Below are positions 10,607 to 33,231 of a stretch of 64,000 nt of DNA, piece by piece. The notes below the pieces were generated by a model that was not told the DNA's origin, searched no databases, and saw nothing but the letters and a program-made list of their open reading frames with translations. The position numbers and the translations under genes were made by a program. Positions within the stretch are counted from its first letter, which is position 1, and every line of letters starts with the position of its first letter. The stretch spans positions 44,631-108,630 of the IMG/VR virus record IMGVR_UViG_2724679237_000005; one strand, 5' to 3'. The stretch is from a virus (lineage: Duplodnaviria; Heunggongvirae; Uroviricota; Caudoviricetes).

Positions 10607-10654
10607 TTCTAAGACTCACTAAACAAATTGTTTTCTTATCTTATAAATTAATTC

Positions 10655-13018
10655 TCAAATATCGAAGCTCGTTATGTCGGCATTTATTGCCATTGCTTCG
10701 GCATAAGTGCGACGCTCACCATCAGCACAAAGTAGGCGTGCTGCTTTATGGATTTTTCTCGTAGAACCGTCATCCAGTGACACTGTCACCCAGCCTTCCT
10801 CCGCTCGCTTAATGAAGTCGCCGCCAATGGATTTCATTTTCTCCATATCTTTTTTCCCGATCGCTTTCCTGACCGAGTCTGCTTCCGCCATTGAGAACCC
10901 CGCCAAGATTCGCGTAGCAGCCATGATCTGTTCCTGATAAATCAGAACACCGTTTGTGTCGCGAGAGATGTCGTCCAGCATAGGGTGTAAGGAATGTGGA
11001 GCCATGAAGCCTTTGGCCACGGAGACATAGTCGTCCAACATGCCGGATTGAATCGGGCCTGGTCGGAAGAGTGCGGTCGTGGCGACAACGGTCTTGAAGC
11101 TCATTGGCTCGATGCCACCGCCCAGATCTTTAAGCAACTTACGCATGGGGCCGGACTCCAGCTGGAATACGCCCTGCGTGTACCCTGCAGCGAACCCATC
11201 CAGAACCTTGCGATCGTCCAGTGGGATAGCGTCGAGATTGATATCTTCACCTGTGTTCTCTTTTATGTAGCGTTTTGCACTATCGAGCAAATCGAGAGTT
11301 GCCAGGCCAAGCACGTCCAGCTTAATTAGGCCCATAGCCTCGCAGTAACGCTTGTCAAATGCGATACAACGCGCGTCACCACGTCGTTCAACCGGTGTAC
11401 GTTCTGTCAGAGGAACACCTGCTACGATCATCCCTGCCGCATGTCTACCAAAGCCACGCATAAGGCTTTGTAACTTGCAGGCTGCATTGAATGCATCAGG
11501 ATATTTTGTTGCGTATTTGTCGAGACTTGCCAGTTGTTCGCGCAGTTCTTCCAATGGAAGGCTATCATCCTCAGCGTTCTTCAGTTCTTTTGATACCGCC
11601 ATATCTGCGGACTCCACACCATAAATACGAGCGGTGTCACGTAGTGCAGAGGCTGCGCCCAGGTAGGTGAAGTTCGGAATGCCTGCAACGTAATCTTCGC
11701 CGTAGCGTTCATTCAGATACTCGATCACCTCATGGCGACGTGCCTGGCTGAAGTCCAAATCCGCATCTGGCAAGTCGAGACGCTCAGGGTTGATGAAACG
11801 CTCAAACAGAAGACCGTGACGGATTGGGTCGACGTTGGTTATGCCTATGCACCACGCCACCAGAGAACCGGCAGAGGAACCACGACCAGGCCCAACGGGA
11901 ATGCCAGTTTCACGACTATGATTCATCAGATCGCGCACCATCAGGAAGTAACCACAGAATCCCAGGCGAGTCAGCGTGTCCATTTCGTACTTTAGCCGCT
12001 CAACATAAACCCTGTTCTCAGAAGCAGGTGGTGTGTATCCAAACTCTTTTGTGGTAAGACGTTTACGCAGCCCTGCAACAGCCAGTTTCATCAGCGTTGC
12101 AGGTTCGTCGTCTGCCATCTTGGGCAGTGCTGGTGGCAATTCATGCCAGCGCCATGTGCAGGAATCGATAATGGTATCCTGCGTTGTTGAGGCCATTGCA
12201 GCTGTTACAGGCACATCCATGCGAACGGAGAAGGCTTTAAGCGCCTCAAGGAGATGGCGGCGACCATTGACGGCGTTATCTCGCTGGTGGGGGATACGCA
12301 GACGATGCGGCTGGTCGATTTTGATGTTGTTCGTAACCATGTGCGCAATGTCTTTAATGTCTGCATCGTCGATCGATTCGTAATAAGCGGGATAGAACGC
12401 CACTGGCTCTATTTTCAATGCGCTGGCGACTTTCATCGCCCGGACGTTAATCTGGTCGTAGAATGGGGTAGGGTGCGGATAAACCACACTATAGAAGTTG
12501 TCTTTTCCACCCGCTGTAATCAGTGTGCTTATGATTTTTGCAAAATCGTTGCGTTGGAACACGCTACCGATGTCGGAAGTAAGCAGGATGATGTTGCCTT
12601 TGGCATATGTAGAAACCAACTGTTCGAGCGAGAGACGCGGTACAAAGTAGAACTGTTCTCGTGTGTTGGCCGCCGTCATTAGTTCGCAGATGTCGCGATA
12701 TCCTTGCTCATTTTTAATTAGAGCGGTAAACGAGTAGTTACGTCCCCGCTCTAATGATTCCATACATCTCATAGATTCTTTAGCAAGTTTAGCCCGGTGC
12801 TCGTATGTGGGATCATCAACAATGTTTAGTTTCACACCACAAATAACCGCCATGTCGTCACCAGCGGCACGTTGTAGTGGAATAACGCTCGCAATATTCA
12901 TGCTATCTGCTGAAATTACAGCGGTGTAGCCAGCTTCTCTGGCAATCTTCACCGCGTTTTCTGCTTTTAGAGCCGACTCCCCAAGTGAGAAGTCAGTTCG
13001 AACCATCAGTGCCTTCAT
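10655..13018 (-). CDS. dnaE: DNA polymerase III alpha (DnaE), N-terminal fragment (PHP and polymerase core)
   Basis: Palm motif GYFLMVRDLMNHSRETGIPVGPGRGSSAGSLVAWCIGITNVDP and LFERFINPERLDLPDADLDF; ends just before the fingers FNKSHS motif, which is found in the downstream fragment. Confidence 0.85.
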   Translation of the reverse strand: MKALMVRTDFSLGESALKAENAVKIAREAGYTAVISADSMNIASVIPLQRAAGDDMAVICGVKLNIVDDPTYEHRAKLAKESMRCMESLERGRNYSFTALIKNEQGYRDICELMTAANTREQFYFVPRLSLEQLVSTYAKGNIILLTSDIGSVFQRNDFAKIISTLITAGGKDNFYSVVYPHPTPFYDQINVRAMKVASALKIEPVAFYPAYYESIDDADIKDIAHMVTNNIKIDQPHRLRIPHQRDNAVNGRRHLLEALKAFSVRMDVPVTAAMASTTQDTIIDSCTWRWHELPPALPKMADDEPATLMKLAVAGLRKRLTTKEFGYTPPASENRVYVERLKYEMDTLTRLGFCGYFLMVRDLMNHSRETGIPVGPGRGSSAGSLVAWCIGITNVDPIRHGLLFERFINPERLDLPDADLDFSQARRHEVIEYLNERYGEDYVAGIPNFTYLGAASALRDTARIYGVESADMAVSKELKNAEDDSLPLEELREQLASLDKYATKYPDAFNAACKLQSLMRGFGRHAAGMIVAGVPLTERTPVERRGDARCIAFDKRYCEAMGLIKLDVLGLATLDLLDSAKRYIKENTGEDINLDAIPLDDRKVLDGFAAGYTQGVFQLESGPMRKLLKDLGGGIEPMSFKTVVATTALFRPGPIQSGMLDDYVSVAKGFMAPHSLHPMLDDISRDTNGVLIYQEQIMAATRILAGFSMAEADSVRKAIGKKDMEKMKSIGGDFIKRAEEGWVTVSLDDGSTRKIHKAARLLCADGERRTYAEAMAINADITSFDI

Positions 13019-13202
13019 GTGTTTTTACCTTTCTGGTTTTTTTGATTTTGTCATTGGGGAAGCCTACGAACTTCCCATGCATCGAAATCGCAACTTCTTT
13101 TGCTGATTGGTGACAATCGGGCTTGTCTGGACACACCAGACAAGCCTTACCAGTTTCAGAAGCAGCGATAAGAGAGCCGAAACATCCTTTACGCACGATC
13201 AA
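12993..13202 (-). CDS. small Cys-rich hypothetical protein (69 aa)
   Basis: CLVCPDKPDC cluster; overlaps dnaE start by 25 nt so its start may be internal. Confidence 0.3.
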   Translation of the reverse strand: MIVRKGCFGSLIAASETGKACLVCPDKPDCHQSAKEVAISMHGKFVGFPNDKIKKTRKVKTHEGTDGSN

Positions 13203-14434
13203 CCAAATATTTTTTGAACAACTTCACGAGCCGCTTGTGCAGAAGCTGAAGGGAGTTTGTTAATGAAAGAACGCTCAATACCTGTCACAAAGTCGCCTCG
13301 CATCATTCCAATCTTGGCCGACAACAAAAGTTCACGAGGGCCAATTGGCTGACTGATAAGGTGTTCTTCGTATCCATCGCGAACGATACCGGCAAACTTA
13401 ACCATCTTTTCTGCGTATTCATCCACGATACCGGCATTTATCAACATGTTGATCTCTGCCTCTTTGCTCATGTATTTCACATTCGAAACGATGCCAAAAC
13501 GCGAAAAGTTCGCGGCGTTCTGGATGTTTGTACCCTGGTACAAGCCGGTTTCATCACCAGATCCGTTCGTGTTGCCAGTGCCAATGAAAGCAAACCGTTC
13601 ATGCGGAGTAATGCGACGCCATTCTGGAGTCGCCTCTTTGATGACCAACGCTTCACCTTCCAGCACTGGCTGATACACGCCAAGAATCTGTGGAAACGCA
13701 AAGTCGTATTCATCCGCGAGGTAAACCCAGCCATGCTTCATTGCGAGCGCAAGCAAGCCAGGTTCGAAATACGTAGAGCCATCACGCGCCAGAATTTGCC
13801 CCGTAACATGTGCCTCTTCCATTGATGCTGTATGTTGGGCACGGATCAACGGACGATTGAGCAAAGCACATAGCTGTGTAGGCAATGACGATTTGCCTGT
13901 TCCTGCATGACCCCACAAATAGCCAGGTATGCCAAGTTCAAGCATCATGAAAATATCTTTGATCAGTTCGAAGTCGCCATATACGTAGCCTTTCTTCACT
14001 TCGGGAACGAACTCTGGAAACGGCGTATTGACGTTGACGCTAACCATGAGCGGCGTCCCACGTTTTGTTCCGAGTTCTTCCACCGTTACGTCTAGCAGTT
14101 CGTGAGCTGCGACCAGATCTGTCTTGTACTCAACTGTGCCTGTGTAGCCTGGGCTACTGGTCACGCCAGATGATTTGGCCATTTCGCTTTTTTGCTCGGC
14201 ACGTTTAGCTTGAATTGCATCAAGTGCCTTTTTCGATAGCGTTGGCTCATCTGGAAACTGTGTTGTGTACATTTTCAGTACGGTGTCAGGATCGGCATCT
14301 TTTACTGACTCAGGAATGCCCTCGCAATTACCATTGGCTACATGGGACTTAAAATAGTGAAATGATTTTCCGCACCACTTGCAAACAAGGTAATCAGAAG
14401 GATTTTTTTCATTTTGCAGTGCAGTAGTCGTCAT
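13199..14434 (-). CDS. AAA+ ATPase, MoxR/CobS-like
   Basis: Walker A GHAGTGKS, Walker B LADEYDF; followed by a VWA-domain partner as in CobS/CobT pairs common in phages. Confidence 0.7.
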   Translation of the reverse strand: MTTTALQNEKNPSDYLVCKWCGKSFHYFKSHVANGNCEGIPESVKDADPDTVLKMYTTQFPDEPTLSKKALDAIQAKRAEQKSEMAKSSGVTSSPGYTGTVEYKTDLVAAHELLDVTVEELGTKRGTPLMVSVNVNTPFPEFVPEVKKGYVYGDFELIKDIFMMLELGIPGYLWGHAGTGKSSLPTQLCALLNRPLIRAQHTASMEEAHVTGQILARDGSTYFEPGLLALAMKHGWVYLADEYDFAFPQILGVYQPVLEGEALVIKEATPEWRRITPHERFAFIGTGNTNGSGDETGLYQGTNIQNAANFSRFGIVSNVKYMSKEAEINMLINAGIVDEYAEKMVKFAGIVRDGYEEHLISQPIGPRELLLSAKIGMMRGDFVTGIERSFINKLPSASAQAAREVVQKIFG

Positions 14435-14529
14435 GCGTTTTTCCTTTGTTTTCTAATGAGCGTTCAACTTCTTATATAAATATATCATTAACTATCGTAA
14501 GTGGTTACTTATCATTAAGGCTGTTTTGT

Positions 14530-16638
14530 TCACTTTAAAATGATACGAGATAGTTCAGTAACTACAGATGAACCAAGACTATCAACGCTCGTTACCAGGG
14601 CATGATTTGAGTAAAATCTCTCCGGTGCGTCAGTCATGATGCCAATTGCCATCAAATCAATGTCAGTCTGCGTTTCAATTTGTTTCGCAACCGAACGCAA
14701 ATGAGCGTCAAAACCTCTCCCAACAGCCCACGGCGCGCCATCACTCAGAACAAGCATGATCTTCCTGTCCTCCATGCGACCGGAAAATAACGATGCAAGG
14801 CTGGCTATGCTTTCACCATCCACGTTATTAAGAAGTGGGAATGTGTAGCCTACGCACCCCATACGTGAGCGAACTTCGCGAGAATTTACCTTTTCATTCC
14901 AATTTTTGATGATAGGTAGCATTAAAGATTCAAAGCGAGAGAACTCATACTTGACAGCCTTAAGTTCTCCTGCCGCCATATGACTACCAAATGTAGTGAA
15001 GCCGGTGATAATGTTGGGAACATTTATTCGATCAAGGGCATCGGCGATGGTATATGCACTTGCAAGAGCCAATTGTATCGTTATACCACTCATTGAACCT
15101 GATAAATCAATCACTTGTTGAACACAGGCGTTAACGGCTTTAGATTCTTCTTTTTTACGAAACACGCGATCATCATTCATTGCTAATCTGTAGATACTAG
15201 AACCATGAATGCGCCCCCGACGCTGGCCCGGTATAAACTGAACTCTGTTTCTGCTTGCTATTGCTCGCTCTAGGTCTTTTGCCAGCGTCGACGAAACACC
15301 TGACGAAAGATGCTTTTCAATATATTTGTCGAAGAGCTGGTTGCCTTCAGGAACGATGCGATAGCGGCTGATTGGATATCCTCCCAAATCAATATCGGAG
15401 AATGTTTTAATAAGCCGTTTGATATGGGCTTCTGCCTGATCAATCGAGCCGATGAAGTCGTATGAGCGATTGTATGGCCTGTATTCGCTTTTCGAGCTTT
15501 CTGTTAACTCGCTTTTAATCGTTTCGGATAGAGCATCTTCTGTCATGCCTCCGACTTCATCTTCTATGCTATCCAGCTCCTCTAAAGCCTCTTCCAGACT
15601 CATTTTTGACGGAGTTGGAATATCTGAAGAGCCGTCTTCTGTCGTTTTTCTTTTTTCGTGGTCAGCGGTTAATGATTCTGACGCCGCGTTATCAGAAGCA
15701 TCAGAATCTGATACCTCTTCATCATTTTCTGTATCATCGAATATTGTTTCTGATGATTCAGAATTATCTGAATCATCACTGTCGTTATTATCATGTTTGT
15801 GCTTACTGTGTGATTCTGGTTTGATAGATTTGTGATTATCTAACGCTGAGGGTGTCTCATAATCTTCGTTATCTTCATTGTTTTCTCCAGAGGCATCCGT
15901 CTGGTCAGCGTCTGAAGGATCGGAAGTTTTTCCCGGAGCTGACTCCTTACCTTTGCTTTCACTTTCAGTGTCTTTGAGGATCTTAGCTATGGTCGCAGCC
16001 ACCTTTACACAATCCTCGGTGCAAGACATGTTACGCACAGCCACATCGATACCATGTTCTTTTAATAATGAAATTGGTTTCTCAATGACAGGCCAGTATT
16101 CATCCATGAAATCTACGAACGGTGCTTGGCCATCCCAGGCTCTTACAACCGGACAGAGAAAGAAGTTTAGAAAAAGCGCGCGCTGATCTTTGCCACAATA
16201 AGCAATAGCCTCTGAAGCCTTTGGTTTAAAGACTTTTTCGATTATAAGGCGCTGAGTTGCCATCAGATTACGTCTTGTTCCGTTAAAGACCTGCCCCATT
16301 TTTCGCTCGATGAACACGTCTTCTAAGGCATTCCATAGCGACCAGGAAGGAACGCGTCCTTTTTCTCTCATTTTGTTGGACACACGAATATCGGTAAACA
16401 AAATGTGAGCAACCTCATGATCGAGAAATCCGCGCACAGCATTCATCAATGCCGGTGTTGCGTTATCCGGGATTGATGGGATGTTTACGAGAATTGGCTC
16501 TCCATCATCGTTATAGCGTACATAAGCGTCGTCCCCTCGTTCTGCAACAGGGATGTTTTTACCTGAAAGGAGAGCGACAACTCGTTTTACACTGTCACGG
16601 AAGTCCTGAACCTCTTTGATGGAACGTTTTTTAGACAT
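14530..16638 (-). CDS. von Willebrand factor A domain protein, CobT-like partner of the AAA+ ATPase
   Basis: MIDAS motif DLSGSMSG; long acidic Ser/Asp-rich low-complexity region. Confidence 0.65.
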   Translation of the reverse strand: MSKKRSIKEVQDFRDSVKRVVALLSGKNIPVAERGDDAYVRYNDDGEPILVNIPSIPDNATPALMNAVRGFLDHEVAHILFTDIRVSNKMREKGRVPSWSLWNALEDVFIERKMGQVFNGTRRNLMATQRLIIEKVFKPKASEAIAYCGKDQRALFLNFFLCPVVRAWDGQAPFVDFMDEYWPVIEKPISLLKEHGIDVAVRNMSCTEDCVKVAATIAKILKDTESESKGKESAPGKTSDPSDADQTDASGENNEDNEDYETPSALDNHKSIKPESHSKHKHDNNDSDDSDNSESSETIFDDTENDEEVSDSDASDNAASESLTADHEKRKTTEDGSSDIPTPSKMSLEEALEELDSIEDEVGGMTEDALSETIKSELTESSKSEYRPYNRSYDFIGSIDQAEAHIKRLIKTFSDIDLGGYPISRYRIVPEGNQLFDKYIEKHLSSGVSSTLAKDLERAIASRNRVQFIPGQRRGRIHGSSIYRLAMNDDRVFRKKEESKAVNACVQQVIDLSGSMSGITIQLALASAYTIADALDRINVPNIITGFTTFGSHMAAGELKAVKYEFSRFESLMLPIIKNWNEKVNSREVRSRMGCVGYTFPLLNNVDGESIASLASLFSGRMEDRKIMLVLSDGAPWAVGRGFDAHLRSVAKQIETQTDIDLMAIGIMTDAPERFYSNHALVTSVDSLGSSVVTELSRIILK

Positions 16639-16736
16639 GGCTAATCCTTTGTTATGAAAACAAATTATTTACTAGTGTGTTTAATGTAGCACTGCGCGAA
16701 CAGGGAACTAAGCCATTCGCGCAGGGAGAAGAGGGG

Positions 16737-16949
16737 TTAACAGATTCTGACGGCTAAAGACCCGGAGCCGGTATTGAGAAGCGTGAAGCGTTTGTTGTTA
16801 AGTTCGAATATAAAGCCAGTTGTGTCATTCACACCAACCTGAATCTGCTCATTCGGTAGATCGGTGAGGATGTCAGCTACACACTCATCAGCTAATTTCT
16901 GTACGTGTCCGATCTCAAGAGCGATTAGGCTGGAAATAGTGGTTTTCAT
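16737..16949 (-). CDS. hypothetical protein (70 aa)
   Basis: ORF only; divergent from the HTH regulator gene. Confidence 0.35.
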   Translation of the reverse strand: MKTTISSLIALEIGHVQKLADECVADILTDLPNEQIQVGVNDTTGFIFELNNKRFTLLNTGSGSLAVRIC

Positions 16950-17126
16950 TCAATCAATCCATTCTAACTTATACTATGGTAAGGAATACTACTAAAATTT
17001 GTATCAATACTGAATACATCTATATCAGATGCAAGTTAATTTTCTTACCTATTTTGGGCTGGTTTTTCTCCATGCATGGACCTTTGCTCGGTCTTACAAG
17101 TGCCTGCCGAAAAAAATGATAATAGC

Positions 17127-17154
17127 TTTACAACCCTAATCTTTGATGTAATAT
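17127..17154 (+). promoter_or_regulatory. sigma70-like promoter for the HTH regulator
   Basis: TTTACA (17127-17132), 16-nt spacer, TAATAT (17149-17154); followed by palindrome GGTAAGCACTTACC at 17157-17170 and an AGGT Shine-Dalgarno. Confidence 0.45.
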
Positions 17155-17200
17155 CGGTAAGCACTTACCAGAGAGAATTAAACGCGCAAAGGTTGTAATA

Positions 17201-17587
17201 ATGTCTGACAACAAGATTGAATTTATAGAAAGTCGCTATGCTGCTTTTATCGCAGGGCTGATTGAATCCTCACCTATGAGTCAGGCCCAAATAGCCAGAC
17301 TTATTGGTTATAAAAATGCCAACAACCTTTCTTTAATTAAAAGTGGCAAAATTCCTTTGCCTATCGATAAGGTTCGTCCGCTGGCGCTGGCGCTGGGTAT
17401 TGAGCCAAGTCGTCTTATGATGATGGTGCTGGAAGAACGCCAACCTGAACTCGCAGCATTTTTATACAAAGAAGGCACCGCTCCTCTTAACGAGGACGAA
17501 AAACAGGTTCTTGCTGCATATAACGAGCGATTCGGTAAAGAGAAAGGCGCATCACAAAAGGTTGTTGAGGCCATAAAGTCTCTATGA
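17201..17587 (+). CDS. XRE-family helix-turn-helix transcriptional regulator (repressor-like)
   Basis: HTH segment SQAQIARLIGYKNANNLSLIKSG; convergent with the recombinase gene. Confidence 0.6.
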   Translation: MSDNKIEFIESRYAAFIAGLIESSPMSQAQIARLIGYKNANNLSLIKSGKIPLPIDKVRPLALALGIEPSRLMMMVLEERQPELAAFLYKEGTAPLNEDEKQVLAAYNERFGKEKGASQKVVEAIKSL

Positions 17588-18685
17588 AAAATTTACACGA
17601 ATAAGCTCTGTTGATAGACGATCTCCCTTGAATTTGTGGTCAATTTCGTCTAAATCCGGTTGCTCTACGATTGATGCGATGTACGTCGAGAAACTTTCTA
17701 AGGCGTCTCGCATCTCGTCCATATAATCGTGCCGGTCGTAGACCCGATCTATCCCCTCAAGACTGTGGTTCATGATTTTGCGTGATACCTCCTGGCTTAT
17801 GCCTAATGCTGGGAAGTAACTACGCGCAGTACGGCGCAAATCTCGGGGTGTAAATGGCTCAAGCTCCATCAGTTCTGGTCGTTCCAGAATACGACGTAAT
17901 GCCTGGGCTATTGCCACTTTAGACATAGGAAGGTCTTTCCCGATTTTTTTATTCGAAGGCACGAGCCACTGGCTATCTTTACCGTATTCGAACAACTCTT
18001 CAATGCATGTGCGCATTAATGTGCTTAAAGGCAGCGAATGCTCACGTGCTGACTTGTTTCTTTTGCCTTGATTCCAAACCCCACGCTTAAGATTGAACTC
18101 ACTTTTTTTAGCCCGCAGTACTTCGTCAGGTCGTCTTGCTGATACAAGACACAGCCTGGCCGCCCATTTTGTACCAGCGCACACATTGAAGTAGTCCCAT
18201 ATATTCCAGAACACCCATACCTCTGCGTCGGTCAGCTTCCGCTCGCGAGGTGTGGGCTTTGCGCCACCGGCAACTTTGTTTAGTGACATATCGTTTAACG
18301 GTGACACGTCTATCATTCCCTGGAAGGCGCACCAGCTAAGGAACTGCTTCATCAGAGAGAAAACGCGGCGGCCCATAACAATTTTGCCATCCAGTATTAG
18401 TGGGTTGACCAGTTGGTTCACCATGAACCTATTAATGTCACTTACTTTTACATCGGCAATGTGCGGCAAAACATGTATCAAAATACAATGAACAGCGATC
18501 TCTGGCCGACGTCTTGTTATCAGCAGAGATAAGCGAGTGAATAACATGAATGCGTCCGAGAATCTCATGTCATTGCTGACCTGGGAGATCATAACGGCCT
18601 GCATTTGAGATGCTCTTTCGAGATACTCAATCGCCTCTTTTGAGGTGTTCTCCGCAGCGCGTGCTCTGTCAAAGCTATTTTTCAT
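17582..18685 (-). CDS. tyrosine site-specific recombinase (integrase/resolvase family)
   Basis: C-terminal catalytic region with RDLRRTARS, HSLEGIDRVYDRHDY (His-x-x-Arg and Tyr nucleophile pattern). Confidence 0.75.
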   Translation of the reverse strand: MKNSFDRARAAENTSKEAIEYLERASQMQAVMISQVSNDMRFSDAFMLFTRLSLLITRRRPEIAVHCILIHVLPHIADVKVSDINRFMVNQLVNPLILDGKIVMGRRVFSLMKQFLSWCAFQGMIDVSPLNDMSLNKVAGGAKPTPRERKLTDAEVWVFWNIWDYFNVCAGTKWAARLCLVSARRPDEVLRAKKSEFNLKRGVWNQGKRNKSAREHSLPLSTLMRTCIEELFEYGKDSQWLVPSNKKIGKDLPMSKVAIAQALRRILERPELMELEPFTPRDLRRTARSYFPALGISQEVSRKIMNHSLEGIDRVYDRHDYMDEMRDALESFSTYIASIVEQPDLDEIDHKFKGDRLSTELIRVNFS

Positions 18686-18783
18686 ATGACAATCACCGAG
18701 TTACGCCGATGTACTGTATAAGTAAACAGTATATTAGGCATAGATTCTTATAGGATCAAGAGTAAAAGTAACTCATTTTCAGT

Positions 18784-19315: not shown

Positions 19316-20578
19316 ATGCCTTTTTTAATTTTCATTATTATACTACTGCTCACCGTGATTTTTTGGGATTGGGTTGTTTTAAATGGTCAAATTGTTGGAA
19401 CATTGGCTACAGCATTTGCTTTTATAGCAACAGCATGGAATGCCTACGAAGCGAGAAAAAGTGCAAAAGCAGCTTTTTCAGCCCTTCAATTAACAACAGA
19501 ATCATTGTTCGAAATGCGAAAGAGTGCATTTAAACAATGGTTTGATTCCTTATTAAATCAACATGATGAGCTATGTCTTCTTGCAAAACAAATTATCGAT
19601 AAACGCAAAGTTAATTTAAACAGCGATGAGTTACATAGACTATATTACCCATTGGTAAAACAGCATGAGGTAATACAGTATGTGAAGCATATTATTAATA
19701 TTTTTGAGTATGTGGATAGTTCATTTTATATTGATGGGGAATGTCTAAAGGAAAAAAGAGCGTATGTGTCACAATTAATTTTCAAAATCCCACCTCAGAT
19801 GAAGTTGATCATTGCTATCTTTGGATTAAAAATCGATTATTGTGAACATATTAATTCGGGAAAACTGTGTTGTTTATTGAATAAATATGATTTTTTCAAT
19901 GATGAAATATTTTTTGATGATGCTTATTCAGATATGCCTTATCTGGATGCATTCATAAACCTTAGATTCAACAAAATATTCAAATCTCGAATGATAAATT
20001 ATTTTGATAATATCATTAAAAGTTATTATGTTCCATCGGACGTTAAAAGGGACTGGATGTTTCGAAACCCAAAGCTCGTGCCGTCGGTTCTTATGAATTA
20101 TAAAACTCCTTGTTCTCCTATAATTAATGATTACTTTGAGAAGTTGCCTTTACATGTAAGAAACTACTTTGAGGAACTACTTAAAACCGCGAATGATAGA
20201 GTTACTCATTTTGACGTTTACATCCCACGCCTTATTGGTTGTTCAATCGTGCAACATTACGAAGATGTGCCTTCCGAAAAAAACAGGTTAAATGACAGGA
20301 ATGATGTAATAGCTATGGCTGAAGATTACATCGAGAAAAGAAAATATAATCAACTGGATTACATACTTGAAGATATATACTTCAAGAGTGACGAAGATAT
20401 AATCCCTGGCCACCATTTGATTGTGGCATTTGATGACTATGAATTTAAATTATCACTCATTAAGATAAATGAGAATAAAGATAGCGATAATCTTTTAAAT
20501 CGAATTTATACTGAATCCAGTAGCATGGTTAAAGAATATAAGCGCGAAATATTAAAACTGGGCGACTATGTAAAGTAA
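19316..20578 (+). CDS. AT-rich accessory gene: membrane-anchored 420-aa protein of unknown function
   Basis: Plus-strand among minus-strand genes; markedly AT-rich codon usage; two N-terminal hydrophobic helices (FLIFIIILLLTVIFWDWVVL, IVGTLATAFAFIATAW); own terminator; no recognisable catalytic motif. Confidence 0.6.
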   Translation: MPFLIFIIILLLTVIFWDWVVLNGQIVGTLATAFAFIATAWNAYEARKSAKAAFSALQLTTESLFEMRKSAFKQWFDSLLNQHDELCLLAKQIIDKRKVNLNSDELHRLYYPLVKQHEVIQYVKHIINIFEYVDSSFYIDGECLKEKRAYVSQLIFKIPPQMKLIIAIFGLKIDYCEHINSGKLCCLLNKYDFFNDEIFFDDAYSDMPYLDAFINLRFNKIFKSRMINYFDNIIKSYYVPSDVKRDWMFRNPKLVPSVLMNYKTPCSPIINDYFEKLPLHVRNYFEELLKTANDRVTHFDVYIPRLIGCSIVQHYEDVPSEKNRLNDRNDVIAMAEDYIEKRKYNQLDYILEDIYFKSDEDIIPGHHLIVAFDDYEFKLSLIKINENKDSDNLLNRIYTESSSMVKEYKREILKLGDYVK

Positions 20579-20768: not shown

Positions 20769-20770
20769 TC

Positions 20771-22493: not shown

Positions 22494-22642
22494 TTTTTCA
22501 CCTTTGTTTCATGAACTACCCGATACACGCGCTTTCCGATGCACAGTGTTTTGGTTTTAAGTTCCTGCTTAATCAAATCACGACAGATGCCGAAGCCGAT
22601 AAGGAAGCCACCCATAAAAGCCAATGAGATGTATGGAATCAT
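22490..22642 (-). CDS. small membrane protein (50 aa) starting inside repeat copy C
   Basis: ATG at complement 22640-22642 within the repeat (MIPYISLAFMGGFLIGFGI...); stop overlaps next start; below ORF-track cutoff. Confidence 0.3.
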   Translation of the reverse strand: MIPYISLAFMGGFLIGFGICRDLIKQELKTKTLCIGKRVYRVVHETKVKK

Positions 22643-22647
22643 TTCAA
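22625..22647. repeat. copy C of 23-bp repeat CAATGNGATGTATGGAATCATTT
   Basis: Read directly at 22622-22644 region; provides the start codon of the 50-aa ORF on the minus strand. Confidence 0.6.
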
Positions 22648-22854
22648 CGCTCCTGACTCTACTAGTTGCTGTAGCAATACTTTCCCTTTATCAGTTAACT
22701 GGTAGTTGGCCGAACACTTCGTTTCAGAAACGTTTGCAACCAACCCTAACCGCTCTAACTTAGCCCGCGTTTTAGGCTTCCAGTACTCAGGGAACTCTGA
22801 CCACTTACTGATTTCATGAAGTGTTTCCTTCTCCCGTTTACTTAATACGATCAT
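22639..22854 (-). CDS. hypothetical small protein (71 aa)
   Basis: ORF; stop overlaps start of the next gene (ATGA). Confidence 0.45.
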   Translation of the reverse strand: MIVLSKREKETLHEISKWSEFPEYWKPKTRAKLERLGLVANVSETKCSANYQLTDKGKVLLQQLVESGALK

Positions 22855-25653: not shown

Positions 25654-25778
25654 ACCAACTCCTAGCTAACGGATGAAAGTATTCTTACAAAAACTTAAGT
25701 ATGTATCTACTTATCATTTTAGATGCAATAGTTCTTTATACTAAGATGCCGGGCATATCCTCAGCCCAGCATTCACCT

Positions 25779-26192: not shown

Positions 26193-26422
26193 TTTGACTT
26201 CCCTTTATTTATATTTATCGTAGGTATTAGTTAACCAAAACACGAGCCGTGTCACAATAATTCCATAGCTCATTATCTCTATCGGTGATTAATATCACAT
26301 CAACTTTACAGTCCATAAATTAAATTATCAAAGCTGACAGATTAACTAAATTTAAGTACCCTTTTCGCACACTTGACGCTTGCCGCGTCTAAACTATTCA
26401 TCCTATATCAACAGAAAAAAAC

Positions 26423-27568
26423 ATGAAATACATAAAACCTTCATCGTTGCTGGCATTAACTTTGCTTTTTAGCTCTGGATTCGTTAACGCAGACAATAAA
26501 CAAACGCTGATAGAAGCCGCTAACGCAGGTGATACCGCAGCACAAAGTGAGTTAGGGACAAATTATTTGGATGGTGTCAATGGTTTTGATAAGGATGTAG
26601 TTGAGGCCAAGAAGTGGATTGATCTCGCTGCAGAAAAGGGAGATAAAGTAGCATATTATGCACTTGGAGTTATGTACACATTTGGCGAGGGTGTAGATAA
26701 AGACCTAAATAAAGCTGTTGAGTACTACAAACTTGCGGGGGATGCTCGTGAAGGTAGAGCCTACAACAATCTTGGTGCTATTTATCAAAAGGGGATGCTT
26801 GGTAAAGTAGATCATGCACTCGCCATTAAATACTTCAAACTAGCCTCTGATGCCGGGTATGTTAAAGCAACTTCAGTTCTTGGGGCGTATTACCAATATG
26901 GTAAAGGCGTTCAAAAGAATTATAAAAAGGCTTTTACTTATTACAAAAAGGCGGCAGACCAAGGCAGTTCAGAAGCTATGATAGGATTAGGAATACTATA
27001 CGATGATGGGTTAGGCGTTAAACGCAATGATGCAGAAGCAGTTAAGTGGTATAAAAAGGCAGCGGAACTTGGAAACGCCGACGCCATAACCAATCTTGGC
27101 ATTATGTATGAGAATGGGGAAGGAGTAAAAAAGGACTATAAAAAAGCAGCCGACCTTTATCAGACTGCTTGCAATAAAGGAGAAAAAAGAGGCTGTGAAT
27201 ACATTACTGAACTGAAAGAAAGCGGAAAATATCGAGTATCTGATTCCAAAGCCAAATCAAAATCAGATGTACAGCGACTTATTGCTAAATCCATTGATAA
27301 AGGCGTTAACGCAACTTTTACCTGGCAAGGTGATGACGCCACATTCACCGCTAATGGCGGCAAAATTGACTGCACTTTCCTAAAGGATTTTTCAGAGAAA
27401 GGAGGCAATCTGGCTACCTCGTTTGTTTGCACCGATAACGTTCAAATCATCCTGAAGCAATTCAGAGATACCAAGAATGCCTACCTCGCGGTAATGACTG
27501 ACAACTTCAACACAGAAGTTAAATCATTTTCGGTCAATGTTTACGTGACTAATACTGGTTCAAACTAA
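26423..27568 (+). CDS. secreted Sel1-repeat (TPR-like) protein with unknown C-terminal domain
   Basis: Signal peptide then at least six Sel1-like repeats (e.g. AYYALGVMYTFGEGVDKDLNKAVEYYKLA, AMIGLGILYDDGLGVKRNDAEAVKWYKKAA); plus-strand, lower GC. Confidence 0.7.
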   Translation: MKYIKPSSLLALTLLFSSGFVNADNKQTLIEAANAGDTAAQSELGTNYLDGVNGFDKDVVEAKKWIDLAAEKGDKVAYYALGVMYTFGEGVDKDLNKAVEYYKLAGDAREGRAYNNLGAIYQKGMLGKVDHALAIKYFKLASDAGYVKATSVLGAYYQYGKGVQKNYKKAFTYYKKAADQGSSEAMIGLGILYDDGLGVKRNDAEAVKWYKKAAELGNADAITNLGIMYENGEGVKKDYKKAADLYQTACNKGEKRGCEYITELKESGKYRVSDSKAKSKSDVQRLIAKSIDKGVNATFTWQGDDATFTANGGKIDCTFLKDFSEKGGNLATSFVCTDNVQIILKQFRDTKNAYLAVMTDNFNTEVKSFSVNVYVTNTGSN

Positions 27569-28813
27569 TGCTGCTATGCCTTTTACCTTGCTTAAAAGTT
27601 CAAGCTGTCGTGAGTAAGGTTTTGCGCAATAGTAGGCTTTGATAATCTTCCCCGGTGTCGCATCGCCGGGGTCGAGTCCTTCCTCGCCCAAACACGCAAC
27701 TTTGACATTAAGACCGATACTGGTCAGTCGCCTGGCTGCGGCCATAGTGTTGCGTATAGCTTGCTTTTCACTATCCCACATCATGATCACATTACGTAAC
27801 CCACGCGCCTTGAGCGTCAGGAACGCGCCTAACTGATCTTCTGCATCCTGAGTGGTGTTACCAGATAGATGCATCCCGAACGTTCCTATTGGTTCCACGT
27901 AATCACGTAATGTTTCTTCGTCAAAAATAGCTCGTTTAACCCCCATAACATCGAACGCCCCCTCACAGACAACTACAGTCTGTTTGCCGACTGCATTATG
28001 GCCGTTGTAGAGAAACTTACCTGAAGCTGGAAGCTGCATAGGAAAGAGGTAGCGGCGTTCTGCTGTACCGGTAATGTCTCGTCCCTGAAATGTCTTCATT
28101 ACCCCATCCAGATCGTAAACCGGTATCAGTATTCGCATATCGAATATCTGCCCTTTTACCTGATCTGTATACGGATCTACATAAGCGTGCTTGCCTTCGA
28201 CGCAGTATCGTAGGTCAAAATACTTTGCCATTTCAGGTGATATGTTTCGTTCAACCAGATAGTCTGGAAGACGGCCATCTATAGGAAGCTCGTAATGACG
28301 AGGGAGTGCAACTGGCCCCTCTAACTCGACTGTGCTTGCAAGCACTAGCTCTTCTTTCTTTGGTGCCCACCCCTGGGAAAGAAGGGCGTTCTGCACATAT
28401 TCCTCGAACTGTCGTCGTGATTTGCCGCTGTAGTGCTTGAGGAAGACCAGCTTATTGAACTGAATCTCTTCGGGATGATCACCAGCGAAGCATTTACCGA
28501 CGCCACTGGTCAGATTGAAATATACCTTCCAGTTGGAGCTGCCGCATACCGGACACTCTTTGATATTCACTTCACGACCGCGAGCACTCACGCCTCCACG
28601 TCGATAAACGATACCTTCAGTATCCAACCATTGTTCAAAATCTAATTCGGCAATTAGCTCTTTCAGCTCGCTCACGATAATTCCACTTTTAACAGGCAAT
28701 ATTGTGACCAACCTAAATGTTGATATAACATAAAGGCTCATGTGTTTTTCTTTTGTGGTTTGGCAAAAGAAAAGTTGTTTCACCAATGAATCAAGCGTGG
28801 AGGTGTTCTCCAC
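27560..28813 (-). CDS. DNA primase (zinc finger plus TOPRIM)
   Basis: CPVCGSS...CFAGDH zinc-binding motif and TOPRIM VVVCEGAFDVMG; track start is GTG inside a hairpin, true start uncertain. Confidence 0.65.
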   Translation of the reverse strand: MENTSTLDSLVKQLFFCQTTKEKHMSLYVISTFRLVTILPVKSGIIVSELKELIAELDFEQWLDTEGIVYRRGGVSARGREVNIKECPVCGSSNWKVYFNLTSGVGKCFAGDHPEEIQFNKLVFLKHYSGKSRRQFEEYVQNALLSQGWAPKKEELVLASTVELEGPVALPRHYELPIDGRLPDYLVERNISPEMAKYFDLRYCVEGKHAYVDPYTDQVKGQIFDMRILIPVYDLDGVMKTFQGRDITGTAERRYLFPMQLPASGKFLYNGHNAVGKQTVVVCEGAFDVMGVKRAIFDEETLRDYVEPIGTFGMHLSGNTTQDAEDQLGAFLTLKARGLRNVIMMWDSEKQAIRNTMAAARRLTSIGLNVKVACLGEEGLDPGDATPGKIIKAYYCAKPYSRQLELLSKVKGIAALV

Positions 28814-28822
28814 GCTTATTTT

Positions 28823-30163
28823 TTAGGTAACGTCTAAGATTCGCTCAATGAAGCGCATTTGTTCGAGGTTTTGTTTAACGCGAATGCTGATCCCTCCCTG
28901 CTGGTTACGCGAACCAGCAAAGTAGAGACGAGCCTCTCCTTTCGCTTCTTCTTCTTCGGTTTTGTTGATCGTTATTACCAGGTCAGCAATACGTACTTTT
29001 TCGATGTTGTCGGCAGCGTGCATCATTGTGGCAACTTCTGACGCGCCACCTTCACGGTTTGTTTGCGACGCCGTGATACCAGCAACGTTATGCTTGTCAT
29101 AAAGAGCACGTAAATCGGTGTAGATACTACGAATGTTGGCGCGATCATCACGAAGGTCATAACTGGCACGCATCAAATCTGCGTAGTCGACAACAACCAT
29201 GTCAGGCACCATGCCATTGGCTTTCATACTGTTAAGCATACGGTCCAGATCTGCCGGTGACATACTTCCTGACGGACGCTCAACAACCCACAAACTACCA
29301 ATCCCCTTAGAGGCTCCCAACTCTGCCAACTTACGATGAACTTCATCGCGCCGTTCCACCAACTTGGACATTTCCGTCTCCGACAATCTTGCATCAAAAC
29401 GGTCGGACAAAATGTTGGTGTGAACCTCCAGCGAGAGATACAGAACATTGTAGCCAGCAAGCGTTGCGTTTATGGAAAACTCACCCATTGCGGTCGATTT
29501 ACCGGATTTAGCGAACCCCATGAAGAGCACCATTTCGCGCTTTGCCCAGCCTTTTTGGTACAGCAACCTATCGAGAAGAGGGAGTCCAGTTGTAATACTG
29601 TTTGGTACATACTCCTCTGAAGCCTCATATTCACGCGCTTTCAATCGCTCACTTGCGGAGGTGTAGTAGTCATAGATTCCGGTCGCTTCGTTCGATCCAA
29701 TCTGCTGAACCTTGGCCATGATTGCCATCGCCCCCTGAAAGTCGCCCTTCTCTTTCAGTTCAGCAGCCTTAATCAGAGCATCATCAAACGCTACGCTTTT
29801 TGCGAAGGTTGATACCTGGTCAACCATGTACGAGGTATCGGACAATTTTTCTGCAAGGATGCGCTTAAACGCAGCAACAACATCGGCGAATAGTTCCTCA
29901 CGGATAGTCTTATCGCGTTTCGCACGCTTAAGCATATCCAGAATTGCAGATGAAGAGGGCGCGCTCTTGTACATACGGTAATAGCCCGAAACCATATTAA
30001 CCAATATGGCATTGGCCGCATTGGCAAATTGGCTAGGCACAACCAGATCTCCCGCACGAGTAAGAAACTCGTGATCACGACAAAAATATGCCGTCAGTCT
30101 GTTCTGGAAATCTTCATCAAACTCTTCGGACAGCCCGCGTCCTGTATGGCAAAGTTCGGTCAT
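28823..30163 (-). CDS. dnaB: DnaB-family replicative helicase
   Basis: Walker A GFAKSGKST, C-terminal Arg-finger region AGSRNQQGG; ORF-track start at 30190 is TTG, the ATG at complement 30161-30163 has a better Shine-Dalgarno (AAAGGAAAG). Confidence 0.75.
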   Translation of the reverse strand: MTELCHTGRGLSEEFDEDFQNRLTAYFCRDHEFLTRAGDLVVPSQFANAANAILVNMVSGYYRMYKSAPSSSAILDMLKRAKRDKTIREELFADVVAAFKRILAEKLSDTSYMVDQVSTFAKSVAFDDALIKAAELKEKGDFQGAMAIMAKVQQIGSNEATGIYDYYTSASERLKAREYEASEEYVPNSITTGLPLLDRLLYQKGWAKREMVLFMGFAKSGKSTAMGEFSINATLAGYNVLYLSLEVHTNILSDRFDARLSETEMSKLVERRDEVHRKLAELGASKGIGSLWVVERPSGSMSPADLDRMLNSMKANGMVPDMVVVDYADLMRASYDLRDDRANIRSIYTDLRALYDKHNVAGITASQTNREGGASEVATMMHAADNIEKVRIADLVITINKTEEEEAKGEARLYFAGSRNQQGGISIRVKQNLEQMRFIERILDVT

Positions 30164-30208
30164 GTGCTTTCCTTTGTTTTTTTTAAACAAATTGTTTTCT
30201 AGTATTAG

Positions 30209-30958
30209 TTAATTAGATAGGGGATCAATAAACCGCCGTGCTTCTTCCAGTTCTTCTGGAAAGTGGGCGGAAATAAGGCGCTCTGGAACGATTTCCATTA
30301 GCCAGATAGCGGAGAAAATTGCGCGTATGCGCTTGCTGCGGGGGATGGTGCGTAAACGCTCCAGAATCCACTCAAAATAGCTTTCCTGAATCGGGTTGAA
30401 CTGCATGTCTCCCATATGCTTAAAGCTAACCAGAGAGTCATCCAGACGGGTTGTTGCGCGTCTGGCTAATTTCTCTTCGAATATCTCAATCAACTCTGGC
30501 TGCCACAAATGCTGTGGGCGCGGCAGCTTGTCCCACAGACGTCGTGCAGCTGCGGAAAGAACGGTGGAAATAAAGTAGTCGTATGAGCAGCAATAGCGGT
30601 CAGCAAACTGGCGTGCTTTCCATAGCGACGTTTTATTGGCAGTCGACAACTCCTGATAAGGCAGGCGTTTTAACCCGGTGGTGAACGGAGCTGTTTCAAA
30701 GTGTTCGCGACCGTGCGTCAGCATGATATTTGAGTACTGACGTTTGTATGCCTCCGTAAAAAGACAGGTGGCCATGAGAGGATGCATGTCGCGGTAATCA
30801 AACCACTTCGTCTCGAAGAGTTCAGCCTCGTCTTTACAGCGCGACAAACCAATGTTTTCAGCGACCCACTTGTCCATAACAGCGGTATTCCACTCTGTCA
30901 TGAAGTCGTACTGGTCGTTGTCGATGGTATCGAAAAAGATTTGGCTCATGTGGCTCAC
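30209..30958 (-). CDS. hypothetical protein (249 aa), possibly replication-associated
   Basis: ORF immediately upstream of dnaB in the same operon; no recognised motif. Confidence 0.45.
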   Translation of the reverse strand: MSHMSQIFFDTIDNDQYDFMTEWNTAVMDKWVAENIGLSRCKDEAELFETKWFDYRDMHPLMATCLFTEAYKRQYSNIMLTHGREHFETAPFTTGLKRLPYQELSTANKTSLWKARQFADRYCCSYDYFISTVLSAAARRLWDKLPRPQHLWQPELIEIFEEKLARRATTRLDDSLVSFKHMGDMQFNPIQESYFEWILERLRTIPRSKRIRAIFSAIWLMEIVPERLISAHFPEELEEARRFIDPLSN

Positions 30959-31065
30959 CTGGTAGGTAGTTACTTACTTATCACAATGAGCGGATGATAG
31001 CGACTGGTGGCAGTTTTTGGAAGTGGAAACGGAAGGGAGTTGTTCTGGTGGTGTCTTTTAAAAGA

Positions 31066-31120
31066 CCTGCTTCCGTATATATTTAATAAGTTACTTATTA
31101 TTTATATATACAGAAGCAGG
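31066..31120. repeat. 55-bp AT-rich near-perfect palindrome with GC clamps
   Basis: CCTGCTTCCGTATATATTTAATAAGT / ACTTATTATTTATATATACAGAAGCAGG; lies in divergent intergenic region between the 249-aa gene and the GIY-YIG gene. Confidence 0.6.
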
Positions 31121-31230
31121 CATAACTTGTCGTCTTAGACGCCCAGAAGCTCTACACTTTGAGCCTGTTAAATTGATTAAAACCTATGTGTAAAATAGAA
31201 CGCATTAGTCAGTAGCAAAGAGATGCAATA

Positions 31231-31998
31231 ATGGACGATTTATCGGTATACGCGAGATCATTGGATAAGGCTAAATACTATGTTTACTGTCTCTATGATA
31301 CAGAAGACAAGATGAAAAGACCGTTTTACATAGGAAAAGGCAAATCGACTCGTTGTCTCGATCACATCAAGTATCCCGATGACTCTCCCAAATCCATGCG
31401 GATCAAAGAACTTTTGGCTAATAAAAAATTAGGCATAGATATTCTTCGTCATGGTATGGATGAAACCACAGCCAAACTTGTTGAGGCGACATGCATCGAC
31501 CTTATGGGGGTCGGAGAGCTTACGAATAAGGTTCGAGGAAGTGGTTCCATGATGGGCAGAATATCACTGGACGCCTACCATCACTTAGTGCTGCAAGAGG
31601 AAACTGAAATTGCTCCTGAGCACGCCGGTCTTGCCTTCCTGCTAAACAGCACCTACAAGTCAGGAATGTCCGCTCTGGCATTATATGAAGCTACGCGTGG
31701 CGTATGGGCAAAGGTTCCAAGAGACGAGAATCTCAAATATGCCTACGCTACATATGGTGGGCTGATAATGGAAGTTTATCAGATTGAATGCTGGGTCAAA
31801 GCCGGTTCTCAGCAGTACTTTACAAGGGATATAGCTCTTGGCCCCGACACAAAACGTTATGAATTTGTTGGCAGAATAGCCGATGAGCATATTAGAAAAC
31901 TGTATGTAGGCAAATTAATCAAGAAGCCACCAAGCTACGGTAGCCCTTTTGTGAAGGTTGGGATGGTTAGGACTGAACATAGTGTTAGCGCGGCATAA
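31231..31998 (+). CDS. GIY-YIG nuclease domain protein (free-standing homing-endonuclease-like)
   Basis: YVYCLYD...PFYIGKGKS...R...E motif arrangement of GIY-YIG domain at N-terminus; plus-strand, own terminator. Confidence 0.6.
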   Translation: MDDLSVYARSLDKAKYYVYCLYDTEDKMKRPFYIGKGKSTRCLDHIKYPDDSPKSMRIKELLANKKLGIDILRHGMDETTAKLVEATCIDLMGVGELTNKVRGSGSMMGRISLDAYHHLVLQEETEIAPEHAGLAFLLNSTYKSGMSALALYEATRGVWAKVPRDENLKYAYATYGGLIMEVYQIECWVKAGSQQYFTRDIALGPDTKRYEFVGRIADEHIRKLYVGKLIKKPPSYGSPFVKVGMVRTEHSVSAA

Positions 31999-32014
31999 AG
32001 CTGACACTGTAGTT

Positions 32015-32052
32015 ATGCATTGGCGCAATGTACGCGCCAATGCATGATTTTT
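32015..32052 (+). terminator. rho-independent terminator after GIY-YIG gene
   Basis: ATGCATTGGCGC-AATGTAC-GCGCCAATGCAT perfect 12-bp stem followed by GATTTTT. Confidence 0.55.
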
Positions 32053-32410
32053 AACCTTTCTTCATCAACTCTCGTTTGATTTCATCGGTACGCATCGTGA
32101 CATCGGCAGCGGTGATCGCCTCATTCAATTTCACGATGTCCTCGATTTCCTGCGGTGACTTCTCTGCCAGATGGAAAATGGCTGCTCGAATCACGTCAGA
32201 ACGAGTGAACTTCTCGAAGCGAGGGATGAACTTCATCATCTCCAGCAGTTCGAAGTATTCGTCCTCCAGTGACATTGTGCGGCTTTTAATTTTCTCTTTG
32301 CCACGAGTCGGGCGTCCCTGTGGTCTGACTGGTTGGCGCAAAGGAGTTGTGTTCTTAGCCGGTGCATCAGGCTCTTTGCGCTTTGCTAGGTCACCCATTT
32401 TCATGGACAT
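32051..32410 (-). CDS. small partition protein, ParG/ribbon-helix-helix-like centromere binder (putative)
   Basis: 119-aa basic N-terminus, translationally coupled directly downstream of parA as in type Ib partition systems. Confidence 0.45.
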   Translation of the reverse strand: MSMKMGDLAKRKEPDAPAKNTTPLRQPVRPQGRPTRGKEKIKSRTMSLEDEYFELLEMMKFIPRFEKFTRSDVIRAAIFHLAEKSPQEIEDIVKLNEAITAADVTMRTDEIKRELMKKG

Positions 32411-33078
32411 TATTCTTCTTCCTCCAGACTCAACAGATAATCTACAAATTCTTCAAACTCGGCTTCCGCCTTTTTGTCGCGCTCGCTACCGGTCATTTCA
32501 AAGATAGAACGACCAGACTCTTCCGCATCATCATAGACGTTGCGGTTATATAGATTGACTGGCGCAGACTCGATTCCAAACGTCTCAACAATCTCTTTAG
32601 CCGCCAGAATGCGAGACACTTGTGATGGCAAAGCCGGGCACTGGTTCATGACCGCGCGGACCTTCACTTTATCGTTTACATTGCGAACATTGTCGATAAT
32701 AGGATCGATGTCACGTAAAGATTTCAAATCACGACGCTTAGGACGCAGCGGGATAATGATAACGTCAGCCATCAGCATCGCTTGTCGCTGAATTTCGGAG
32801 TCAAAGCCACCAGCATCTACCACTACATACTCAGCTCTACCCTGAAGCGATTTTAGGTGCTTAATGATGTCATCCTGAACGTATGCAAAAGGAATCAGCT
32901 CAAGGTCTTCGTTCTGTCGACGGTCTTCACACCAGCTCGTTGTCGTGCGCTGAATATCTATATCGGTGATATAAACCTTCTTCTTCTTTTTGACTTTCAG
33001 GCAAACGGCAATTTGCTGGGCAACGGTGGATTTGCCAGGCCCGCCCTTTGTGCCGCCAACCACAAAGATCTTGGTCAT
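32410..33078 (-). CDS. parA: ParA partition ATPase (small, type Ib)
   Basis: Deviant Walker A GGTKGGPGKST; 222 aa. Confidence 0.8.
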   Translation of the reverse strand: MTKIFVVGGTKGGPGKSTVAQQIAVCLKVKKKKKVYITDIDIQRTTTSWCEDRRQNEDLELIPFAYVQDDIIKHLKSLQGRAEYVVVDAGGFDSEIQRQAMLMADVIIIPLRPKRRDLKSLRDIDPIIDNVRNVNDKVKVRAVMNQCPALPSQVSRILAAKEIVETFGIESAPVNLYNRNVYDDAEESGRSIFEMTGSERDKKAEAEFEEFVDYLLSLEEEE

Positions 33079-33231
33079 TGGAGAGTTCCCTTTGCGTATA
33101 TAATTATCGTCTGAAACAACTTGTTTTCTTATATGTGATATAGCCTAAATGCCTACGGCTGTGGTGTAAAGGTTAAATGGTAGGTGCTGCCTTAGAATTT
33201 TTAGGCGAGAATCAATGGCTGTTAACAAAAA

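Follow-up and report, generated by a model that had tools for sequence, protein, structure and literature searches.

The window analysed here is a 64,000-nucleotide stretch (positions 44,631 to 108,630 of the IMG/VR virus record IMGVR_UViG_2724679237_000005) of an Escherichia phage-plasmid of the SSU5 super-family, more precisely of the E. coli SSU5-like kind. The window is 98-99% identical to the phages CMS-2020a, PhiR41_1, and Cyrano; its closest complete relative is the E. coli plasmid NZ_CP070135, at 99.3% identity, and Salmonella phage SSU5 shares 82% DNA identity with it. Nearly all window genes are on the minus strand, among them a DNA polymerase III alpha gene (dnaE) split by a free-standing HNH endonuclease gene, a cobT/VWA gene, a dnaB-primase-ligase operon, a parA gene followed by a gene for a ParG-like protein, and a gene resembling those of small terminase subunits. 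Ahead of several of these genes stands a short palindrome, AAACAAnTTGTTT, which reads AGA-AAACAA-n-TTGTTT on the gene (minus) strand; this palindrome, here called motif 1, its distribution, and the protein that may read it are the subject of this work.

The exact 13-mer AAACAANTTGTTT occurs four times in the window, at 10621-10633, 30185-30197, 33114-33126, and 63972-63984, and was never found in 100 dinucleotide-preserving shuffles (0 expected); a fifth copy, at 16658-16670 ahead of the cobT/VWA gene, has one mismatch in the 13-mer. All five strong sites lie 14-40 nt ahead of minus-strand start codons (Table 1), and the longer minus-strand 16-mer AGAAAACAANTTGTTT is matched without mismatch at the 10621, 30185, and 33114 sites, with one mismatch at 63972-63987, and with two at 16658-16673. 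In a position-weight scan built on the SSU5 sites, nine window matches reached at least 11 bits, compared with a shuffle mean of 3.7, and the five strong sites scored 16.8-22.4 bits. Two weak copies, at 36871-36883 and 36973-36985, have two mismatches each and correspond to the chance level. The signal resides in the full 13-mer, since a shorter core allowing one mismatch is not enriched by itself in the window. The 9-mer AGAAAACAA is present six times on the gene strand of the window and not once on the opposite strand. The palindromes ahead of the HNH, dnaB, and parA genes and the degenerate copy ahead of the VWA gene had all been described in the original prediction, and these exact matches and empty shuffles bear it out; its coordinates were right to within 1-2 nt, the parA site being at 33114-33126 instead of 33115-33127 and the degenerate site at 16658-16670, and its inventory overlooked the copy at 63972, ahead of the terminase gene.

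Table 1. Motif-1 sites, neighbouring features, and genes considered as candidate binders (window coordinates unless another sequence is named)
Feature	Position	Strand	Remarks
Motif-1 site AGAAAACAATTTGTTT	10621..10636	-	exact; 14 nt to the ATG (10606) of the free-standing HNH endonuclease gene splitting dnaE
Motif-1 site, weaker, AGTAAATAATTTGTTT	16658..16673	-	16.8 bits; 19 nt to the cobT/VWA ATG (16638)
Motif-1 site	30185..30200	-	exact; 21 nt to the dnaB ATG (30163)
Motif-1 site	33114..33129	-	exact; 35 nt to the parA ATG (33078)
Motif-1 site	63972..63987	-	13-mer exact; 40 nt to the ATG (63931) of the small-terminase-like gene
Terminator-like hairpin AGAGCGC-atggac-GCGCTCT followed by GTGTGTTTT	63942..63970	-	predicted from sequence; flanked by the tandem sites and the ribosome site of the terminase gene
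FljA-family gene	L089 1781-2302 = Cyrano CYRAN_114; NZ_CP070135 14304-14828		outside the window, in an antisense operon; candidate binder
ParG-like gene, 119 aa	32051..32410	-	downstream of parA; could bind the parA site and perhaps others
71-aa open reading frame, winged-helix-like pattern	22639..22854	-	in the dnaB-primase-ligase operon; alternative candidate binder
XRE-type helix-turn-helix gene	17201..17587	+	adjoins the integrase gene; presumed prophage repressor, unlikely motif-1 binder
Motif-2 16-mers (starts)	55029, 48536, 41618-41637, 36093, 30962, 25699, 22177, 17156, 14497, 4596

The window contains only part of the system, and the complete relatives NZ_CP070135, Cyrano, SSU5, and Klebsiella lineage 2 (NZ_CP101792) were assembled and scanned, together with two contrasting elements devoid of motif 1, from Moellerella and Acinetobacter. 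Each complete relative carries 18-20 copies with at most one mismatch, of which five strong sites fall within the window: 20 in NZ_CP070135 (nine of them perfect), 18 in Cyrano (nine perfect), 20 in SSU5 (11 perfect), and 20 in Klebsiella lineage 2, where 15 of the 20 are perfect despite proteins that are merely 36-75% identical. Copy-by-copy inspection of all sites was carried out in NZ_CP070135, where the 20 copies are all intergenic and oriented with the main gene direction, and where AGAAAACAA, with 15 copies, is the commonest 9-mer. The majority of the copies belong to the early region beyond the window, ahead of small open reading frames (ORFs) or early genes and of nucleotide-metabolism genes, while further units include the terminase operon and the mobile HNH gene; the scope originally proposed, replication and partition genes, was therefore too narrow. 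The motif and its architecture recur in SSU5, pHCM2, pFra, and two Klebsiella lineages.

Two types of placement were distinguished in NZ_CP070135. In the downstream type, a GATAAT-like hexamer, often preceded by TG, lies 13-14 nt upstream of the palindrome in 10 of 17 cases, and the ATG follows 11-40 nt further downstream; in the upstream type, a second copy is located exactly 51 bp upstream, covering the -35 zone and immediately preceded by a terminator hairpin. The sites thus abut or overlap the core promoters as read from the sequence, lying either on the -35 zone or at a distance of 3-15 nt downstream of -10-like hexamers, and the putative promoters differ in build: TTTACA-17-TAGGCT with a gap of 15 nt at parA, where a terminator-like hairpin (33232-33249) lies just upstream; a TTGATC-16-TAGTAT-like arrangement at dnaB, where the site begins 3-4 nt past the putative -10 and therefore overlaps the expected transcription start; and an extended -10-like element, TGnTACATT (TGcTACATT in the window), with a gap of 12 nt at cobT. 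Since promoters of different build carry the same site, motif 1 is more than a part of one duplicated cassette. At the terminase gene, the 63972 site is the second member of a pair in tandem with a spacing of 25 bp, whose first member, the sixth copy of the window, is cut by the window end; the complete pair is seen in NZ_CP070135, Cyrano, and SSU5. The hairpin that follows it, together with its T-run, is conserved in SSU5 and Cyrano, the terminase leader folding at -18.5 kcal/mol (z = -1.7), a possible sign of read-through or antitermination controlling the entry into the packaging operon.

The HNH gene (phrog_21964; PF13392, an HNH/NUMOD3 endonuclease cassette) occupies 9872-10606, between the two parts of dnaE at 10655-13018 and 8706-9875, and the 950 bp of window 9826-10775 stand for 144 bp of intact dnaE in phage Cyrano; the cassette carries its own perfect copy of motif 1. 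The dnaE of the Acinetobacter relative is interrupted at a comparable point, there by a NUMOD4 gene, and AAACAGGTTGTTT lies 2 nt ahead of the NUMOD4 ATG. Ahead of the gene at 3495-3920, window positions 3921-3990 hold no motif-1 site, whereas the corresponding site is perfect in Cyrano and has one mismatch in NZ_CP070135; individual motif-1 copies are thus gained or lost among close relatives.

Among 32 upstream-sequence variants of dnaB, from 80 IMG/VR relatives, there is little change in the -35 TTGAT(C/T), the -10, or the ribosome site, and the arms of the palindrome TAGAAAACAAnTTGTTTAA are unchanged in all variants with the exception of one (AAACAAATTATTA, two loci); the central base is free (A, T, or C), and the promoter spacer also varies. 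Invariant arms with a free centre are the signature of a dyad protein site. The parA site is likewise conserved across 24 sequence variants from 52 relatives, and at cobT the orthologous site matches perfectly or nearly so in SSU5, pHCM2, Y. pestis pFra, and Klebsiella. The search of relatives that the original prediction had called for thus finds the palindrome present at the same positions. An RNA or DNA hairpin element was ruled out as the explanation: the folding energy of the 16-mer is 0 kcal/mol, the leaders show no excess of structure over shuffled sequences, and among the variant copies of the relatives a single arm is altered each time, with no compensatory arm changes, so that uncompensated one-arm changes and the lack of a stable fold point to a protein site and not to a hairpin.

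Expression in the lysogenic state can be read from the RNA-seq data for strain LF82 carrying Cyrano (table S1 of PMC9928086; background 9.8). Low values are reported for terS (7.1), cobT (7.8), nrdB (12.9), tciA (7.0), CYRAN_58 (5.7), and CYRAN_101 (7.5), while dnaB reaches 21 (two times background), parA 50, and the ParG-like gene 89 (five to nine times background) (PMC9928086). Taken together, eight motif-1 units are at background in this table and the parA operon alone is moderately expressed. This silence fits repression at the motif-1 sites.

These observations indicate that motif 1 is probably a genuine, conserved, dispersed operator-type site of early and middle promoters in SSU5 phage-plasmids, most likely the operator of one element-wide repressor. 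In about 20 early and middle units, the site would coincide with the transcription start or follow it closely, with the -10 on one side and the ribosome site on the other; at some promoters there is a tandem copy, or a further copy lies 51 bp upstream and covers the -35 zone. A single element-encoded factor, either a symmetric or an internally duplicated protein, would bind it, and binding would silence these units while the element is a plasmid prophage; for the parA operon, with its stronger conventional promoter and single site, the effect would be no more than damping. We infer both the bound state and the repression that would result from it. Two points count against this reading: the silence of the units in the lysogen could also reflect a missing activator, and the promoters are putative, a consensus promoter scan not having called those of parA and dnaB at its threshold. 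The common trans-acting regulator of the original prediction is supported by the dyad with its free centre, by the position between the -10 and the ribosome site, and by conservation; the binders that it proposed, the ParA/ParG pair or the helix-turn-helix (HTH) protein, were not established. In the literature searched, no description was found of motif 1 or of lysis-lysogeny control or regulation in the SSU5 group.

The FljA family is known solely as a flagellin phase-variation repressor, and it is a member of this family, encoded by the element, that emerges as the most likely candidate for the binder of motif 1, tentatively and at somewhat less than an even chance. The protein matches PF03614 over its full length (E = 1e-80), shares 40% identity, also full length, with a genuine flagellin repressor, and is modelled (pLDDT 81) as two tandem Hfq-like units. 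Its gene is core, being present in 831 related plasmids, some of them from the non-flagellate hosts Klebsiella and Y. pestis; the protein is therefore not there for flagellin silencing and must serve the element. Its presence tracks motif 1, as it was found in every motif-1 lineage and is absent from the Moellerella and Acinetobacter elements. A search for FljA-like genes in unrelated phages returned 80 kept loci, all at least 54% identical, after 16 weaker matches had been set aside, and the longer contigs among the kept loci, about 100-114 kb, are consistent with SSU5-like elements. In Salmonella, FljA is a post-transcriptional repressor of fliC (PMC2652032; bioRxiv 10.1101/2025.10.27.684867). 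The fliC leader of Salmonella and Citrobacter carries, just 5' of the ribosome site, the 8-mer CAAGTTGT, which is the core of motif 1. As in fliC, the target of the element's PF03614 protein would be placed between promoter and ribosome site. By this analogy, the FljA-like protein would act on the leaders as FljA does on fliC, on RNA, DNA, or both. The fuller proposal, that a FljA-family protein built of two Hfq-like domains silences about 20 early operons as their master regulator, through AAACAAnTTGTTT in their leaders, across a large and clinically widespread phage-plasmid family, is possible but doubtful.

Several observations weigh against this candidate. The E. coli fliC leader examined is without CAAGTTGT, and by a rough estimate of our own the chance of sharing this 8-mer with fliC at random is about 2-3%. 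The modelled Hfq-like fold suggests single-stranded nucleic acid as the ligand, yet motif 1 is an exact DNA dyad; a leader position fits the downstream-type copies if the inferred promoters hold, whereas the copies upstream of the -35 zone, past terminators and presumably untranscribed, do not fit. For FljA a single target is known, and its action is on mRNA, whereas motif 1 would provide about 20 targets, in elements whose hosts include non-flagellate species. The gene is encoded beyond the window, and its expression in the lysogen is modest, 18 or about two times background in overnight LB and higher under other conditions (PMC9928086). Finally, the distribution argument depends on two contrasting lineages, and two small window ORFs share the same profile.

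The next alternative, that the ParG-like ribbon-helix-helix protein binds motif 1, autoregulating parA and acting also as a global repressor in the manner of omega of pSM19035 or KorB of RK2, with the dispersed copies also being centromere-like, is unlikely. Its attraction lies in the gene order, the gene for a small ParA without HTH coming before that for a 119-aa protein which combines a strand-helix-helix pattern with a basic tail, and in the fact that motif 1 is the sole dyad seen at the parA promoter; in the type Ib partition systems studied, the small partner autoregulates its operon. The IKSRTMSLEDE-helix-helix pattern is invariant in four lineages, and the predicted DNA-reading strand, like the motif, does not vary across lineages; the half-sites of motif 1, about 7 bp apart, resemble the paired heptads of omega; and the ParG-like gene is at nine times background in the lysogen. 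The Moellerella parA promoter retains ATAAGAAAACAA, a half-degenerate site, but the same element keeps the ParG-like protein with its strand unchanged and has no genome-wide motif or regulon. A centromere would need a repeat array adjoining parA, where only the single upstream palindrome is present. The fold is unconfirmed (monomer model pLDDT 63, no PDB sequence match), the family search gave a sub-threshold weak match to the aCcr1 ribbon-helix-helix family and nothing above threshold, and homologues sought in unrelated plasmids came from relatives of this phage-plasmid family only. Of the regulators first suggested, the ParG-like protein may still bind the parA site. Directly after the ParG-like gene, at 32015-32045, lies the only other symmetric element, a perfect 31-bp inverted repeat unrelated to motif 1 and with 12-nt arms, ATGCATTGGCGC-N7-GCGCCAATGCAT, which could be a terminator, a protein site, or possibly the real centromere.

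Even less probable is that an early lytic regulator, the 71-aa product of 22639-22854, binds motif 1 in a Cro-like feedback shut-off, lysogen silence being caused otherwise. The lineage distribution of this ORF is identical to that of motif 1, it is encoded downstream of the motif-1 promoter of dnaB, its ..RAKLERLGLV..YQLTDKGKVL segment can be read as winged-helix-like, and it is annotated as a 'putative transcriptional regulator' in Cyrano. The protein is 56-71% conserved as opposed to an invariant motif, however, family and structure searches with it gave no match, and it is not expressed in the lysogen (6.4), so that the silence of the units there is left unexplained. A second small window ORF, 2401-2613, Cra-like, has the motif-1 lineage profile and is silent in the lysogen. 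CYRAN_117 (92 aa, ribbon-helix-helix-like, lysogen-expressed) was considered and demoted, as its predicted DNA-reading strand is not the same in E. coli as in SSU5 and no counterpart could be detected in Klebsiella lineage 2.

There is also little to recommend the idea that motif 1 has no dedicated binder and is a passive part of a cassette, for example an initial transcribed sequence, a translation enhancer, a site for Hfq or another host factor, or an RNA hairpin or processing site. Many early-region copies do lie in clearly paralogous cassettes of the form CCTTwT-N9-GATAAT-N13-palindrome, the ATAAGA part persists in Moellerella promoters without the palindrome, and the tracts preferred by Hfq resemble the A-rich and U-rich halves of the motif. 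The site is found, on the other hand, at varying offsets in promoters of unrelated build, the upstream-type copies fall outside transcripts, and both the dnaB variants and the lack of a stable or compensated RNA or DNA hairpin speak for a dyad protein site. We know of no host regulator with the motif-1 consensus.

Least probable of all is binding by the XRE-type HTH protein, in the way that P1 C1 acts on many dispersed operators, since this protein is also encoded by the Moellerella and Acinetobacter elements, both without motif 1, and has a different palindrome in its own control region. Its gene is core in about 790 plasmid-state relatives and is at 10 times background in the lysogen, the motif-bearing lineages share the recognition-helix core NANN-SLIKSG, and phage SSU5, a virion isolate, is without the gene but with the sites, as a repressor-less derivative would be. 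An argument for excluding the HTH protein on the grounds that SSU5 lacks the gene was dropped, because its presence in those plasmid-state relatives means that the absence proves nothing. Against these points, the Klebsiella lineage-1 helix diverges from the E. coli helix as much as that of Moellerella does, yet lineage 1 keeps motif 1; and the divergent control region, 16950-17200, contains no motif-1 copy, nor any CI/Cro-type clustering of motif 1 between the divergent genes. Found in the region instead are GGTAAGCACTTACC (17156-17169), which immediately follows a TAATAT -10, and additional GGTAAG half-sites.

This second palindrome family, motif 2 (GTAAGTAnnTACTTAC; (g)ATA-GTAAGTA-nn-TACTTAC-TAT), is found ahead of tail, lysis, and other late or middle genes as well as beside the HTH gene, in about 13-20 copies per genome. 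It is present in all lineages, as is the HTH protein, including Moellerella and, in the form AGTAAGnnCTTACT with 11 perfect copies, Acinetobacter, and its half-sites are about 10 bp apart, which is typical of HTH dimers. Given this lineage spread and the palindrome in its own control region, the HTH protein pairs better with motif 2 than with motif 1. Motif 2 is probably the site of a separate regulator, either a late-promoter site or the operator of the HTH repressor. When a replacement for the motif-1 operator was sought in the Moellerella element, no clear motif was obtained.

The dispersed operators of P1 are the closest parallel, and motif 1 resembles them in kind, as far as the analogy goes: one repressor site at many promoters of a plasmid prophage of about 100 kb, including a DnaB-type helicase operon, with sites that overlap or abut the core promoter and lytic units that stay silent in a lysogen. 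In P1, each operator is a 17-bp asymmetric sequence bound by the 283-aa C1, whereas motif 1 is a 13-bp perfect dyad and includes the partition operon. Dyad symmetry at the DNA level, and the presence of some copies upstream of promoters, also separate motif 1 from the FljA target in fliC. With omega of pSM19035, ParG of TP228, and KorB of RK2, the common trait is that a small ParA partner could read short symmetric promoter sites, and the KorB site is also a 13-bp 6-N-6 palindrome; those systems use repeat arrays or ParB-type HTH proteins, however, in contrast to the one or two copies per promoter seen here, and the Moellerella relative retains its ParG-like protein without the regulon. The dispersed centromeres of N15, palindromes near phage promoters in a linear phage-plasmid with cross-talk between partition and gene expression, are similar in that the sites are scattered through the genome near phage promoters, but they number four and have a SopB-type binder, as opposed to about 20 sites here and a hypothetical link to partition.

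Two further features of the window are recorded here. Repeats of CCGCTGACAG at 697-706, 1827-1836, 2256-2265, and 2343-2352 flank the gene for a RepB-family initiator (608-1822); they form part of a 16-mer present seven times in NZ_CP070135 and are probably iterons. Beside the integrase gene, a variable locus holds a 420-aa ORF (19316-20578, plus strand) in the window and the 184-aa CYRAN_43 in Cyrano. No other lysogen gene comes near the expression level of CYRAN_43, which is 7084 over a background of 9.8 (PMC9928086). The locus is likely a slot for cargo or defence genes.

The SSU5-like phage-plasmids (the pSLy3, pHCM2, pKpn, and pMT1 groups) comprise hundreds of sequenced plasmids of Escherichia, Klebsiella, Salmonella, Enterobacter, and Yersinia, and published surveys place resistance genes on them. 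In these elements, a 13-bp site at about 20 promoters defines a putative regulon and predicts which units would be co-controlled, including parA and the entry of the packaging operon, and it leaves only a handful of named genes among which to look for the regulator. Should the FljA-family protein be that regulator, the presence of a 'flagellin repressor' homologue in non-flagellate hosts would be explained, and the flagellin repressor itself would be a domesticated offshoot of a phage regulator.

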